A DNA stretch of 20,329 bases from a virus. Its lineage: Duplodnaviria > Heunggongvirae > Uroviricota > Caudoviricetes. The notes under the pieces were generated by a model. It was given only the letters and a program-made list of their open reading frames with translations, did not search any database and was not told the DNA's origin. The position numbers and the translations under genes are program-made. Shown here piece by piece: positions 2,193-13,912 of the stretch (position 1 is its first letter; the number at the start of each line of letters is the position of its first letter). The stretch covers positions 1 to 20,329 of the IMG/VR virus record IMGVR_UViG_2537561946_000003, one strand, 5' to 3'.

Positions 2193-2686
2193 TGCTGCCC
2201 CCACAAACAGACTTCACGCTCAATATCACGACGGGTCATCAGCCCTTTCCATTGCTTACCGCCAGCGTATGTCCAGCAACGTAGCTGGTCACATGCGCCT
2301 TTGATATCACCCTGGTTTATTTTGCGAAGAAGCGTCGATGTTCTGAAATTACCAGCGCCCACGTTGTAAACGAGCGAGTAAAGAGCGCCGCGCGTTGTTT
2401 CCGGTATATCGACTTTGATGTACGGGTTAATTTGTCTGGCGACCATGGCAAGGTCTTTATTCAGGAGGGCTTTGCATTCTGCTTCGGTATACGTTTTACC
2501 GGGAATGATGTCTTTTCCGGTGTGTCCGTGACATACAGTCCATACGCCAACGATATCTTCGTATGGTATGTAGCTGACACCTTCCAGGCCATCGTCACCA
2601 CTCGGACCAGTGATGAGCACAGACGCTATGGCAACAGCCCCACCACCAATAGCAGCAGCAACAGCCTTGCGTAATGATGGCGACAT
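2189..2686 (-). CDS. R: SAR endolysin (phage 21 R-type, T4-lysozyme-like glycoside hydrolase with N-terminal signal-anchor-release domain)
   Basis: [57 protein letters not shown]... is near-identical to phage 21 R21 as recalled. Gly/Ala-rich weakly hydrophobic N-terminus followed by the E...D...T catalytic region. Start overlaps the holin stop (TAATG). Confidence 0.9.
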
Positions 2687-2901
2687 TATTCACCTCTCGC
2701 AGCCTTACGCTTATCTTCTTTAATCTTGAAATAAAGGTTTGTCAGATACGTCAGCAAGCCAAACACCAGGCTACCCAATACGCCTATTGCCACCCACTGG
2801 GATGGGGAGACTTTGTCCAGCAACTGCAGTAGCCAGTATCCCGTCCCCACCGCTGACGTGGTGTATGACACACCTGTTGTGATTTTTTCCATCTGGTACA
2901 T
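2686..2901 (-). CDS. S: Class II holin / pinholin (S21-like), 71 aa with dual-start motif
   Basis: [71 protein letters not shown] resembles phage 21 S21. Two in-frame Met codons (M1, M4) are typical of holin/antiholin pairs. GGAG Shine-Dalgarno upstream of 2901. The ORF-track frame extends to 2946. Confidence 0.85.
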
Positions 2902-3001
2902 ACCCCGTCTCCCGTTATCCGGAAGCTGACAACAATAAAAAGCCACCAGTTAATTCCTGATGGCCCTGATGCATAAACGTCATAATACCTGACTGTTATG
3001 A

Positions 3002-3030
3002 TTGACAATAATGATAATGTTTATATAGAA
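3002..3030 (+). promoter_or_regulatory. Candidate sigma70 promoter (TTGACA, about 16-17 bp spacer, TATAGA-like -10) reading rightward
   Basis: TTGACA at 3002..3007 followed by an AT-rich spacer and tataga/atagaa at 3024..3030. Sits about 50-90 nt upstream of a plus-strand intrinsic terminator. Pattern match only. Confidence 0.25.
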
Positions 3031-3080
3031 AGGTTCCCGATGTGTGTTACATATCATTTCTCCACGGGGAATATCCCCAC

Positions 3081-3130
3081 GCCAGCGCAGACTCTTTTAC
3101 CCGTTCTCTTCTGCGCTGGCTCTTTTTTAT
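3081..3130 (+). terminator. Rho-independent terminator on the plus strand
   Basis: Perfect 10-bp inverted repeat gccagcgcag (3081..3090) / ctgcgctggc (3111..3120), followed by tcttttttatt. T-run only on the plus strand. Confidence 0.4.
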
Positions 3131-3309
3131 TATGCTGCTGCATTTACCTCTGGCACCATGCTTTCTATCTCAACACAATACGTGGTACTTCTTGTAACCA
3201 ATATCATAACGATTAATCGACATAGAATTTCTCCCGTGTACAGGAACAGAGTTAAAAAGCCGGAACCGGAATCAAATCACAGGATGACCATCTGCCAGTG
3301 GCAGGTCAT

Positions 3310-3337
3310 AAAAAAAAGGCCGCGCCATGCGCAGCCA
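3310..3337 (-). terminator. Rho-independent terminator on the minus strand (candidate tR'-like or moron terminator)
   Basis: Minus-strand reading GGCtGCGC-atg-GCGCgGCC followed by a T-run of 8 (plus-strand 3310..3317 is an A-run). GC-rich 8-bp stem with one mismatch. Confidence 0.45.
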
Positions 3338-3522
3338 GAACTCACAAGGAAAATGATAGAAGGAAATAACATTAGTGATGTACGCATGGCGCCTCCCGCT
3401 AAGTTCTGCAATGATCAAACAGAACTCGCTACGTGCCCTTAAAACTCGATCATTTAGCCCCTCCAAGGAGGATTCACCATGCGGTTGTTTTTTTAATAAA
3501 CAGTAAACAAAAAAGTCAAGAA

Positions 3523-3633
3523 TTATTCATTCTGTTTTTTCATCATCGGCCACAGCAATACCACAATGCCGCAGACCAGAGCGCCATCAGTCAGTACCAA
3601 CATTATCCTGCTGGTGAAATCCATCATCACCAT
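3523..3633 (-). CDS. Hypothetical 36-aa hydrophobic peptide (small membrane protein candidate)
   Basis: ATG at 3633 to TAA at 3525..3523 translates to MVMMDFTSRIMLVLTDGALVCGIVVLLWPMMKKQNE: one predicted TM helix and a basic C-terminus. No strong Shine-Dalgarno. Below the ORF-track length cutoff. Speculative. Confidence 0.2.
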   Translation of the reverse strand: MVMMDFTSRIMLVLTDGALVCGIVVLLWPMMKKQNE

Positions 3634-3766
3634 CACTAAAAGCAGGATCACAACAGCAAGCAGACACAGTTTATAAAACAATGTTCAGAAAACGCATTCA
3701 GCATGCCTAAGGTTCTATTCCTACGAATAGCCAACTTGCAACTTAAAATATTATTTATGCAGCCAA

Positions 3767-4525
3767 TTAAATTCTGGTCCTTACAATATCAACCTGAAGA
3801 TTCTTATCTTGTGCTGATTGATAAATGACAAACCTTTTACTACCTGCATTGAAAGAAGTAGACAAAACCAGACAATTATCATAACGAGCAAGAACATAAT
3901 ACCAACCATCATTATAATTAATCATTTCATATTCTTTCTTAAACTGCGGTTTGTAATATCCTGTCAGAAATGAAAAAAGCCAGAAATATGCCACAAAAGC
4001 AATCATCACAATCTCAAAAAAATGTTTTTTTATAAATGGCTTATCATAGAAGCATGATACCGATAAAAATCGCCCATAAGATCTTATCGAAATTGTAACC
4101 GCCAGCGCAATCGCTGCTGACAGTAGCAAAAGAGGTACCTGAATCTTCTGTCTCAATATAGAAAACTCAATAATTGCCGGCACAAACAATAATTCCACAG
4201 CAAAATAAAGGCGAAATACATTTAGCTCTTGCATAGAATGTTTTCTTTTCACTGCGAAAAAGAATACAACACCAATACCCCAACCGATAAGAAATATAGC
4301 AATGACGATAACTGCAAAAAATAAACTTCTGGCAACATCATCAACACCTGCACCTACAATCCACCATGGGAAGCCGTAGTAAAAAGAAGTACCCCATCCA
4401 TAGAAATAAGCACTCCCCCATCCAAGGCATCCCATGTAGGCAATAAAAAGTGAAGAACTCCTGAGCAGTGCACCATCCTTCATAACCACCCCAATACAAG
4501 ATGATAACATTGGCTTACAACTCAT
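3767..4525 (-). CDS. Hypothetical polytopic inner-membrane protein (AT-rich moron between Q and the lysis genes)
   Basis: 252-codon ORF, probably starting at ATG 4483 (GGGGTGG Shine-Dalgarno; MKDGALLRSSS...). Several hydrophobic Phe/Tyr/Trp-rich segments (about five predicted TM helices) and a C-terminal soluble region of about 50 aa. Visibly AT-rich compared with flanking phage genes. No family recognised. Confidence 0.6.
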   Translation of the reverse strand: MSCKPMLSSCIGVVMKDGALLRSSSLFIAYMGCLGWGSAYFYGWGTSFYYGFPWWIVGAGVDDVARSLFFAVIVIAIFLIGWGIGVVFFFAVKRKHSMQELNVFRLYFAVELLFVPAIIEFSILRQKIQVPLLLLSAAIALAVTISIRSYGRFLSVSCFYDKPFIKKHFFEIVMIAFVAYFWLFSFLTGYYKPQFKKEYEMINYNDGWYYVLARYDNCLVLSTSFNAGSKRFVIYQSAQDKNLQVDIVRTRI

Positions 4526-4684
4526 AACAAAAGCAATTCAATGCCGTCAAGAGGTTACAGGCTAAAAAAACTCTATTACATTGCAGTCAGCATGTTTACT
4601 ACACAAATACAATTCAGAGCATAAAAACTACTCGGCGGCAGGTTATTGAGACTCATCAATGACATGTAAAAAACGCCCATTATT

Positions 4685-4725
4685 GGTGTCAAGTTTCCCC
4701 AAAGTTATTCAAAAAGTCAATATTA
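4685..4725 (-). promoter_or_regulatory. Late promoter pR' with Q-binding/qut region
   Basis: Minus strand reads TTGACT-ttttgaataactttggg-GAAACT-TGACACC, co-linear with the lambda pR' architecture as recalled (TTGACT-17 bp-TAAATT-TGACTC). Lies immediately downstream of Q. The -10 is a weak match. Confidence 0.4.
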
Positions 4726-4762
4726 TGCCGTTAATATGTTGCCATCCGTGGCAATCATGGCA

Positions 4763-5386
4763 CTAACGTGTGATCGCATTCAAAATGTTGTCTGCGATTG
4801 ACTCTTCCTTGTGGCATTGCACAACCAGAGCGTCATACAGCGGCTTAACAGTGCGTGACCAGGTGGGTTGGGTAAGGTTTGGGATTAGCATCGTCACAGC
4901 GCGATATGCGGCGCTTGCTGGCATTCTTGAATAACCGACGCCTTTACATCTTCCGCACTCTTTCTCAGCAACTATCCCCCACTGCTCTGTTTTGGCTATA
5001 TCAACCGCACGGCCTGTACCGTGGCAATCTCTGCATCTTGCGCCCGGCGTAGCGGCACTACGGCAATAATCCGCATAAGCGAATGTTGCGAGCACTTGCA
5101 GTACCTTTGCCTTAGTATTTCCTTCAAGCTTTGCCACGCCACGGTATTTCCCCGATACCTTGTGTGCAAATTGCATCAGATAGTTGATAGCCTTTTGTTT
5201 GTCGTTCTGGCTGAGTTCGTGCTTACCACAGAATACAGCCATTCCGAATCCGGCTTGTGATTGCGCCATCCCCATAGCAGCCATCACATCAGTACCGGAA
5301 AGAGAGTCAGAAGCCGTGGCCCGTGGTGAGTCGCTCATCATCGGGCTTTTTGGCGAATGAAATTTAGCTACGCTTTCGAGTCTCAT
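4763..5386 (-). CDS. Q: Late-gene antiterminator Q (lambda type)
   Basis: 207 aa, MRLESVAKFHSPKSPMMSDSPRATASDSLSGTDVMAAMGMAQSQAGFG... is essentially identical to lambda Q as recalled, including the Cys-rich zinc-binding region. ATGA overlap with ninH. Confidence 0.95.
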   Translation of the reverse strand: MRLESVAKFHSPKSPMMSDSPRATASDSLSGTDVMAAMGMAQSQAGFGMAVFCGKHELSQNDKQKAINYLMQFAHKVSGKYRGVAKLEGNTKAKVLQVLATFAYADYCRSAATPGARCRDCHGTGRAVDIAKTEQWGIVAEKECGRCKGVGYSRMPASAAYRAVTMLIPNLTQPTWSRTVKPLYDALVVQCHKEESIADNILNAITR

Positions 5387-5571
5387 CGTCTTCCCTTTTT
5401 GCCTGGCGTTACCATCAGGACGCCGTTAACTATTGCGTGACGCTCGCCTTTGCTGTCTCGGTTGTACTTGAGCACTGTTCCTCTTGCGCAGGAAAGCATC
5501 CTCGCCACTTCGGTCTGATTTCCTCGTGTCTGGATAAGAAGCTCTGGTATCGTTTGAATTGTGGCGTTCAT
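5383..5571 (-). CDS. ninH: NinH-like small DNA-binding protein (Fis-like HTH)
   Basis: 62 aa with GNQTEVARMLSCARGTVLKYNRD...HAIVNGVLMV, matching the lambda NinH core (GNQTEVARRLKCSRGTVRKY). Position immediately upstream of Q as in lambda. Confidence 0.75.
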   Translation of the reverse strand: MNATIQTIPELLIQTRGNQTEVARMLSCARGTVLKYNRDSKGERHAIVNGVLMVTPGKKGRR

Positions 5572-5930
5572 ACGTTCTCCAGTTCGGTGATTTTTATTCC
5601 AAGCCTTCCGCCAGGTACTTTCACGCCACGAATTACGCGAATGTCATCGAATTGCTCGTCGTCTTCCGCAAATCCGGCGTGGATAAGGGAGTCGAGTAAA
5701 CCTTTAAGAATGTTGTCGAGGTCGCGGCGGCGGGAGTCTGGAACGTCTGCGATGACTTTGATTCGTAGTCGTGATTTGGTGAAAATGTCTAACTTGAGTT
5801 GGCGGATGATTTGCTGAACGTCTTTTCGGTATTTCAGGCCTTTATCGCTGATGTAGTATTGGCTTCCCCGTCTTCGCCAGTAGGTGTTCACCGACGGCGG
5901 GTATGGAAGCACAAACTGATATTCGTTCAT
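5568..5930 (-). CDS. rusA: RusA Holliday-junction resolvase
   Basis: 120 aa, MNEYQFVLPYPPSVNTYWRRRG...DSRRRDLDNILKGLLDSLIHAGF..., with the RusA catalytic acidic motif (RRRDLDN) and the same length as E. coli RusA. Confidence 0.9.
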   Translation of the reverse strand: MNEYQFVLPYPPSVNTYWRRRGSQYYISDKGLKYRKDVQQIIRQLKLDIFTKSRLRIKVIADVPDSRRRDLDNILKGLLDSLIHAGFAEDDEQFDDIRVIRGVKVPGGRLGIKITELENV

Positions 5931-6217
5931 GACTTAATCTTCCCCTCCTTCAGCAGTATCGCCTGCGTCCTCATCACGCCTTCGAGGTGGTAAAGTCTGG
6001 CGTCTTTGTTGTCGAGAATCCGGGTGCGTCGGTCGATCTCCGCGTGGCAGTCACTACAAGCCCATGCGCCGATCAGGTCGTCAGGCTTCATTCCCGTTCC
6101 GCAAATTCCAGCCATCCGGTAATGTGCCAGAACTGTAGTTTCAGGATTGCCATTGCATATGCCGTAAATACGTACCTGGCATTCTCTGCCGCGTGCTTCT
6201 TTGCGTAGGTTAGCCAT
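5927..6217 (-). CDS. DUF1364-family putative nuclease (YbcO-like)
   Basis: 96 aa, MANLRKEARGRECQVRIYGICNGNPETTVLAHYR...CSDCHAEIDRR..., resembles DLP12 YbcO as recalled. The YbcO-RusA gene pair is as in DLP12 and phage 82. Confidence 0.75.
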   Translation of the reverse strand: MANLRKEARGRECQVRIYGICNGNPETTVLAHYRMAGICGTGMKPDDLIGAWACSDCHAEIDRRTRILDNKDARLYHLEGVMRTQAILLKEGKIKS

Positions 6218-13675: not shown

Positions 13676-13747
13676 GCGCTGCGTTACCGCATACCAATAA
13701 CGCTTCACTCGAGGCGTTTTTCGTTATGTATAAATAAGGAGCACACC

Positions 13748-13912
13748 ATGCAGTATGCCATTGCAGGGTGGCCTGTTGCTGGCTGCCCTTCCGAATCTTT
13801 ACTTGAACGAATCACCCGTAAATTACGTGACGGATGGAAACGCCTTATCGACATACTTAATCCGCCAGGAGTCCCAAAAAATGGATCAAACACTTATGGC
13901 TATCCAGACTAA
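13748..13912 (+). CDS. cIII: CIII (FtsH/HflB inhibitor stabilising CII)
   Basis: Hand translation from ATG 13748 (AAGGAG Shine-Dalgarno): [54 protein letters not shown], matching lambda CIII. Below the ORF-track cutoff. Confidence 0.9.
   Translation: MQYAIAGWPVAGCPSESLLERITRKLRDGWKRLIDILNPPGVPKNGSNTYGYPD

Follow-up and report, generated by a model that had tools for sequence, protein, structure and literature searches.

From which promoter is a moron transcribed when it lies inside the leader of a lambdoid late operon, and what keeps the lysis genes behind it silent? The question is raised by a stretch of 20,329 nucleotides of tailed-phage DNA (Caudoviricetes; IMG/VR record IMGVR_UViG_2537561946_000003, positions 1 to 20,329), called the window below. 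On its minus strand, to which all leader and cassette coordinates refer unless stated otherwise, the order is the antiterminator gene Q, a short leader, the moron open reading frame (ORF), a small TciB-like ORF, a structured non-coding RNA with a strong terminator, a spacer of about 410 nt, a holin gene and a signal-arrest-release (SAR) endolysin gene (Table 1). A first-pass annotation had placed the moron between the late promoter pR' and a tR'-like terminator, and predicted its expression in the lysogen without Q while the lysis genes stay Q-dependent. Such expression, with silent lysis genes, is supported by the data assembled here. Read-in from pR' is likely to be a minor contributor to it, judging from the sequence features discussed below, and an autonomous promoter within the cassette would be the simpler explanation.

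Positions 2880-4790 of the window are 99.8% identical to prophage PP4 of the enteropathogenic Escherichia coli (EPEC) strain E2348/69 (NC_011601 1058952-1060860; window position = 1063742 minus the NC_011601 coordinate). Transcript levels are available for this strain as DESeq2 BaseMean values from RNA sequencing (RNA-seq) of cultures grown without prophage induction in an activating and a non-activating condition (PMC8550237, table S2). In PP4 the moron (E2348C_1012) reached 147 and 90, respectively, and PasD1, the non-coding RNA behind it, 8652 and 502, against 6.0 and 1.3 for Q, 5.4 and 1.2 for the holin and 3.9 and 0.6 for the endolysin. The corresponding values in prophage PP2, which carries the same cassette, were 226 and 120 for the moron (reads being shared with the PP4 copy), 11017 and 1476 for PasD2, 69 and 43 for Q, 3.5 and 1.1 for the holin and 3.2 and 0.8 for the endolysin. 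The contrast between the moron and the lysis genes, together with the anatomy of the locus, upholds the predicted lysogenic phenotype; the designation of the terminator as tR' has to be given up.

This terminator consists of the hairpin GGCTGCGC-ATG-GCGCGGCC (3336-3318) followed by U8 (3317-3310). Every U-rich site on the minus strand was scored with a discriminant of the d'Aubenton-Carafa type, which combines the ViennaRNA hairpin energy per nucleotide with a U-tract score (d); as positive controls, lambda tR' scored +28 at the known end of 6S RNA and the annotated phage 434 terminator +42. The hairpin at 3336-3318 has d = +62, a folding energy of -14 to -16 kcal/mol and a z-score of -3.1. 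Going downstream from 4684, no site scores positive before it, and it is, as had been noted at first pass, the first strong intrinsic terminator downstream of the moron. The minus-strand prediction, which had also been proposed there as a check, returned only one other positive site in the window, at 2964-2942 (d = +32). This second terminator is absent from the earlier annotation, and phage 434 has an annotated terminator at the equivalent place.

The terminator at 3336-3318 with its U8 coincides with the mapped 3' end of an already described small RNA (sRNA), the Hfq-dependent PasD1 seen in uninduced cultures, since the published PasD1 coordinates (NC_011601 1060260-1060432, plus strand, prophage PP4; Pearl Mizrahi et al. 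2021, PMC8550237 table S6) convert to window positions 3482-3310. A PasD band was obtained by northern blotting with a probe that cannot separate PasD1 from PasD2; RNA-seq and the ligation and sequencing of interacting RNAs (RIL-seq) separate them partly (PMC8550237). Both EPEC RNAs have been described as structural relatives of STnc100, encoded near Q and LpxR genes, with pasD1 adjoining a holin/lysozyme operon (Zhu, Shabalina and Storz, bioRxiv 10.64898/2026.05.13.724894). In the window the Rfam STnc100 model (RF02076) matches positions 3508-3354 with 38.9 bits (E = 5e-7), below its gathering score of 47; PasD1 is related to STnc100 and, by the Rfam threshold, not a member of that family. 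A promoter-like TTGACT lies just upstream of PasD1, at 3519-3514. A 36-codon ORF that crosses the terminator (3277-3387, minus strand), with a lipoprotein-like signal (LVSSGC) and an apparently strong Shine-Dalgarno sequence, is probably no gene. It was rejected, together with the terminator-spanning ORFs annotated in RefSeq and phage 434, because PasD1 encloses them and what looks like a Shine-Dalgarno sequence belongs to an RNA helix conserved in STnc100.

The same terminator has no homology to known tR' sites. It lies about 1375 nt from pR' with two ORFs in between, outside the approximately 50-260 nt typical of tR', and the leader-terminator homologue is a degraded sequence at 4644-4623. 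The distance from the terminator to the holin ATG (2901), likened at first pass to the lambda tR'-to-S spacing, is indeed 409 nt, against 407 nt in lambda. However, homology of the two spacers was rejected for want of any sequence similarity, and the equal length is for the same reason a coincidence.

The leader between pR' and the moron had been described as free of hairpin-plus-T-run terminators, and scoring bears this out. From the approximate transcription start (4684) to the ORF start (4483) every scored site is negative, the best being -3.4 at a T7 run (4570-4564), which may act as a weak partial terminator. The sequence at 4644-4623, AACCTGCCGCCGAGTAG-T5, corresponds to the annotated phage 434 terminator AAACCCGCTGCCGAGTGGG-T8. 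In that phage the same cassette, 98% identical, lies behind a Q82-type Q, and the terminator stands right where the similarity begins. Because of a 4-nt deletion and substitutions relative to the phage 434 form, the stem is destroyed in the window: the remnant scores d = -14 versus +42, and its fold has z = -0.5 versus -3.3. Neither the remnant nor the T7 site (z = -0.7) folds better than shuffled sequence, whereas real terminators reach z-scores of -3 to -5. Rho-dependent termination is unlikely as well, the leader being C-poor (C/G 0.67) with no 78-nt window of C/G >= 1.5.

This state of the leader is shared by all relatives with the same type of Q. Among 108 IMG/VR loci with the cassette leader, in a sample enriched for cassette loci by the first query, the degraded form is present in every locus of lambda-Q type and the intact form in every locus of Q82 type. 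Leader haplotypes of lambda-Q type, scored where at least 175 nt of upstream sequence was present, reach at most -3.4, and all 11 of the Q82-type haplotypes score between +29 and +47. In 96 of 98 lambda-type pR' modules that lack the cassette, a terminator follows within about 200 nt (45 within 80 nt, as in HK97 and P22; 51 near 190 nt, as in lambda); with the cassette, none of 63 has one within 320 nt. Because the leader terminator is degenerate, transcripts from pR' would not be stopped before the moron, and with that terminator lost the one of PasD1 would be the first barrier they meet.

The late promoter itself begins 42 nt past the stop codon of the lambda-type Q. In a column-by-column comparison, the motif TTGACT-17-GAAACT lines up with lambda pR' (TTGACT-17-TAAATT) as well as with the promoter/Q-utilization (qut) regions annotated in mEpX1 and the P22-like phage Emek; with the 98% identity of Q, this confirms the lambda-colinear pR' that had been placed directly downstream of the gene. 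The spacer, which would hold the Q-binding element, agrees with lambda at 14 of 17 positions, and the pause-element slot reads AATAAT (4684-4679) where lambda has AACGAT, with GGG next in both; Q binding and pausing are predicted from this comparison. Similarity to HK97/HK022-type phages ends at 4683-4676, right behind the pause element. We infer the activity of pR' in the window, and its start site, from the alignment. It keeps the -35 TTGACT and the 17-bp spacing, together with G at -14 and the invariant bases at -11 (A) and -7 (T). However, the -10 element GAAACT retains three of six consensus bases, and a consensus scanner that calls lambda pR' skips this one. GAAACT is confined to cassette-bearing loci (58/58), whereas TAAATT is found in 98 of 99 lambda-type pR' modules without the cassette; the remaining cassette loci have TAAATT (four) or TAAGTT (one). 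This lineage-specific change may compensate for the loss of the terminator or may simply have hitch-hiked in one lineage. A T6 run (4673-4668, minus strand) at about +12 to +17 coincides with the site of the sigma-70-dependent pause in lambda (+16/+17), a position at which a run of this kind is absent from lambda, mEpX1 and Emek.

A candidate promoter of the cassette lies closer to the moron. The scanner called TTGTTA-18-TATCAT with an upstream TG, i.e. an extended -10 element (4530-4501), in both the window and phage 434; transcription from it would start about 10-14 nt before ATG 4483. E. albertii and Escherichia sp. MOD1-EC7003 keep two blocks of the upstream region, TTGACGGCATTGAATTGCTTTTGTTATGA and ATGTTATCATCTTGT, without change, and vary in the bases between and after them. 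The MOD1-EC7003 copy, whose moron protein is 94% identical, lies at a chromosomal non-phage site (L117, 2900-4250), with neither Q nor pR', between genes for a small multidrug resistance (SMR) transporter, an esterase and an aminotransferase. Its membrane-protein gene is intact and its DUF3927 region decayed, followed by a PasD/STnc100-like RNA with terminator and a DUF1737 fragment, and its similarity to the cassette begins only about 95 nt before the ATG. The candidate is thus a conserved consensus match to which this Q-less copy lends indirect backing.

The cassette is widespread and occurs at both types of junction. Among 5426 complete E. coli genomes the lambda-Q-type junction is present in 572 and the Q82-type junction, with its intact terminator, in 620, with enrichment in EPEC and enterohaemorrhagic E. 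coli (EHEC). No cassette is present between Q and S in lambda, HK97 and mEpX1, and the moron has a GC content of 30-41% versus about 50% in its flanks. In E2348/69 the PP2 and PP4 copies are nearly identical across the cassette, their morons differing by three synonymous single-nucleotide polymorphisms in the 717-nt ORF. Immediately upstream, identity is only about 80% over 70 nt of leader, with 12 substitutions and a 4-nt indel at 4645-4582. So abrupt a change near 4575 suggests that the two prophages recently recombined or underwent gene conversion.

Taken together, these features point to a mosaic leader, the reading towards which we lean, if only moderately. A lambda-type Q-pR'-qut module would have been joined, about 50 nt past its transcription start, to a mobile accessory cassette comprising one or more sigma-70 promoters, a 238-aa TfpB-family membrane protein, a TciB-like peptide, PasD1 and a strong terminator. 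Most of the moron/TciB mRNA in the lysogen would come from the cassette promoter (TGtTATCAT, 4509-4501). PasD1, which accumulates to high levels and ends at the U8 tract, would arise from the promoter-like site just upstream of it or by processing. Constitutive transcripts from the weakened pR' would add a minor share by read-in and would end at the PasD1 terminator, which thereby would serve as the de facto tR'; the few that pass it would be stopped at 2964-2942, both terminators keeping holin and endolysin off. Upon induction, Q would engage the polymerase paused at qut and read through both terminators into the lysis genes, and late transcription would sweep the cassette too.

The share ascribed to pR' can be shifted in either direction. 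At one extreme the moron would have no significant promoter of its own, and constitutive transcripts from pR' would run for 1.4 kb, PasD1 possibly being their processed 3' product and the whole a coding analogue of StxS or lambda 6S RNA. This is in line with the constitutive activity of pR' in lysogens of lambda and Stx phages, where the leader RNA can have a function (PMC7547250), with the lack of any predicted terminator from pR' to the moron in all lambda-Q-type copies, with transcription of the moron and PasD1 while Q is silent, and with the stability of the arrangement across the 572 genomes mentioned above. It nevertheless appears quite unlikely: the cassette is equally common behind an intact terminator, and the E2348/69 copy in that position has equal or higher counts, though reads multi-map. 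Moreover, an intact cassette copy exists without Q or pR', the promoter-like blocks upstream of the ORF are conserved, and the -10 element of pR' is degraded. A more far-reaching version, in which loss of the terminator turned the leader into a lysogenic-conversion operon, is tentative and rather doubtful. The 1.4-kb transcript from pR' would then be a Q-independent message for the membrane protein and the TciB-like peptide, with PasD1, at least in part, as its processed 3' end and a coding counterpart of StxS, and the change from TAAATT to GAAACT would be a compensatory adjustment of dosage.

At the other extreme, transcripts from pR' would never reach the moron in the lysogen, the moron and PasD1 would use cassette promoters only, and the degraded hairpin would be inconsequential. 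Either a GAAACT pR' is essentially inactive unaided, or the T-rich leader (the T6 run, the remnant with its T5, and the T7 run) halts most polymerases. The poor -10 element confined to the cassette lineage would fit the former; the near-zero score of the T7 site and the presence of three U-runs within 120 nt of leader would fit the latter. The Q-to-moron intergenic region was, in addition, not seen among the Hfq-bound RNAs of the RIL-seq entries. However, the promoter positions listed above are kept, and the phage still needs a working late promoter to lyse its host. Nor do the shuffle-like folds of the two weak sites and a leader composition without a Rho entry site favour arrest, and we consider this possibility somewhat unlikely. 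Nothing predicted blocks read-in from pR': there is no terminator, the C-poor leader has no obvious Rho entry and the ORF would be translated.

Several points weigh against a mosaic leader. The moron counts are not assignable to one copy because the PP2 and PP4 ORFs are nearly identical, and for the same reason a comparison of the two as a test of promoter shares was rejected. In AT-rich DNA, matches such as the cassette promoter are common and hence weak evidence; over positions 2500-6000, five promoter-consensus matches were found where shuffled sequences give 7.1. The leader counts are not independent events and amount effectively to one observation, because the lambda-Q-type cassette lineage shares one junction, probably of single origin, and the direction of change could be either decay or gain of the hairpin. 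With GAAACT as its -10 element, pR' might have almost no activity or might instead be strong. Finally, searches for published 5' ends gave nothing usable on this arrangement, be it for PasD1, pR' or the cassette promoter.

As for the product of the moron, the ORF was taken to start at ATG 4483 rather than at ATG 4510 as in RefSeq and phage 434 (247 aa, WP_001302581.1), because homologues across the Enterobacteriaceae are uniformly about 238 aa long. The older annotation of E2348C_1012 (1059259-1059975) has the same start, which also leaves room for the extended -10 candidate. Four to five hydrophobic helices predict a polytopic membrane protein. A search of the available Pfam and NCBIfam copies gave no match, PHROGs lists the family as 'unknown function', an AlphaFold model built from 26 homologues was poor (predicted local distance difference test, pLDDT, 59.7; predicted template modelling score, pTM, 0.38), and a literature search on 'TfpB' returned nothing relevant. 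Distant homologues (PF27470 'TfpB', 46-66% identity) are free-standing genes adjoining virulence genes. They are oriented divergently from eltAB (heat-labile toxin) on plasmids of enterotoxigenic E. coli (ETEC), from sseJ in Salmonella (STM1630) and from lpxR in Citrobacter rodentium.

On the plus strand, the stretch from the PasD1 terminator to the holin contains a small convergent transcription unit (3001-3128). It has a perfect TTGACA at about 3001-3006 (plus strand), a plus-strand terminator (3079-3122 followed by T6, d = +24) and a sub-threshold match to Esr41 at 3041-3130 (32 bits versus a gathering score of 102). A RefSeq ORF that overlaps the unit, the dubious E2348C_1013, has high and Hfq-dependent RNA-seq values (2064 and 220). 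The unit probably gives rise to an Esr41-like sRNA in head-on orientation to late transcription. Elsewhere, positions 13735-13793 (plus strand) match the lambda cIII thermoregulator RNA element over its full length (RF01804, 84.8 bits), which confirms a lambda-like early-left operon on the strand opposite the late genes. No link of the sRNA HnrS (PMC13502914) to the locus could be established, and a search for EcOnc13 gave nothing usable.

Table 1. Features of the late leader, cassette and first lysis gene (window coordinates).
Feature	Position	Strand	Evidence or remarks
Q antiterminator gene, lambda type, 207 aa	4763-5386	-	98% identity to lambda Q; Pfam Antiterm E = 4e-58
pR'/qut module (predicted)	4676-4720	-	-35 TTGACT 4720-4715; putative Q-binding spacer 4714-4698; -10 GAAACT 4697-4692; probable +1 ~4684; pause element AATAAT 4684-4679
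Degenerate leader-terminator counterpart, AACCTGCCGCCGAGTAG-TTTTT	4623-4644	-	homology to annotated phage 434 terminator
T7 run (4570-4564) after loose AU-rich 49-nt hairpin	4564-4619	-	borderline non-terminator, d = -3.4
Candidate cassette promoter(s)	4501-4550	-	TTGACG 4550-4545; TTGTTA 4530-4525, 18 bp, extended -10 TGtTATCAT 4509-4501
Moron ORF, 238-aa polytopic membrane protein (predicted)	3767-4483	-	Pfam PF27470 'TfpB', phrog_1521
DUF3927/TciB-like small membrane protein ORF, 52 aa	3523-3681	-	Pfam DUF3927 E = 1.4e-14; phrog_1470 TciB-like; annotated TciB in phage 434
PasD1 sRNA, 173 nt, own intrinsic terminator included	3310-3482	-	NC_011601 1060260-1060432 (+), PMC8550237 table S6
Second intrinsic terminator, just upstream of holin	2937-2964	-	d = +32; dG -12 to -16 kcal/mol; z = -3.8
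First of the lysis genes, S21-type class II holin	2686-2901	-	Pfam Phage_holin_2_1 E = 2e-32; RefSeq coding sequence

Each arrangement of the cassette is found in roughly one in ten complete E. coli genomes. The cassette's sRNA, PasD1, is abundant and Hfq-dependent and has virulence genes as targets. If pR' does feed the cassette, an antitermination leader would be a place where genes and sRNAs can be expressed in the lysogen without evolving a new promoter, and the StxS principle would apply to a small operon as well as to a short RNA. Should transcription come from the cassette promoter alone, the element would be an ordinary moron and the degraded hairpin a neutral relic. PP2 and PP4 of E2348/69 unite both natural arrangements, with intact and with degraded leader terminator, in one strain, and offer a ready-made comparison. 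PasD1, the moron concept, the constitutive activity of pR' and functional leader RNAs are already known. In the literature on PasD and this region, we found no description of the loss of the leader terminator in lambda-Q-type copies, of the PasD1 terminator as the first barrier for pR' or of the linked weaker -10 element.

The closest known system is the pR'-tR' (6S RNA)/Q switch of lambda. The two share a nearly identical Q, colinear -35, spacer, -10 and pause elements and terminators ahead of the lysis genes, as well as the logic of a promoter that is always on and an antiterminator that decides on read-through. Unlike lambda, where the first strong terminator is 194 nt away, and HK97/P22-type phages, where it is about 55 nt away, the leader in the window runs for about 1375 nt to that point and holds two ORFs and an sRNA gene. 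Its -10 element is GAAACT instead of TAAATT, and its first terminator is not homologous to tR'.

Morons, as conceived by Hendrix and Juhala, are known in lambdoid phages from examples such as bor and lom of lambda. The cassette resembles them as an AT-rich extra block, present in some relatives and absent from others, with a promoter candidate and a terminator, and transcribed from a repressed prophage. In contrast to these, it lies within the late leader, upstream of the first effective terminator. Because of this position it would be exposed to both constitutive transcription from pR' and strong Q-dependent late transcription.

StxS of the Stx phages starts at pR' and arises by processing of a 258-nt leader (Sy, Lan, Tree 2020, PMC7547250). 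In both systems the lysogen makes and exploits RNA from the interval that separates the late promoter from the first terminator, and that terminator forms the end of an Hfq-binding sRNA (PasD1 in the window) that is plentiful without induction. Unlike in the Stx phages, the interval contains protein-coding genes, and a promoter-like site precedes the sRNA. Phage 434 and PP2 of E2348/69 carry the same cassette at 98-99% identity, with membrane protein, TciB-like ORF, PasD sRNA and terminator. They differ in their Q82-type Q and promoter, in an intact terminator about 45-75 nt past the start, and in a sialate esterase gene between PasD2 and the holin.

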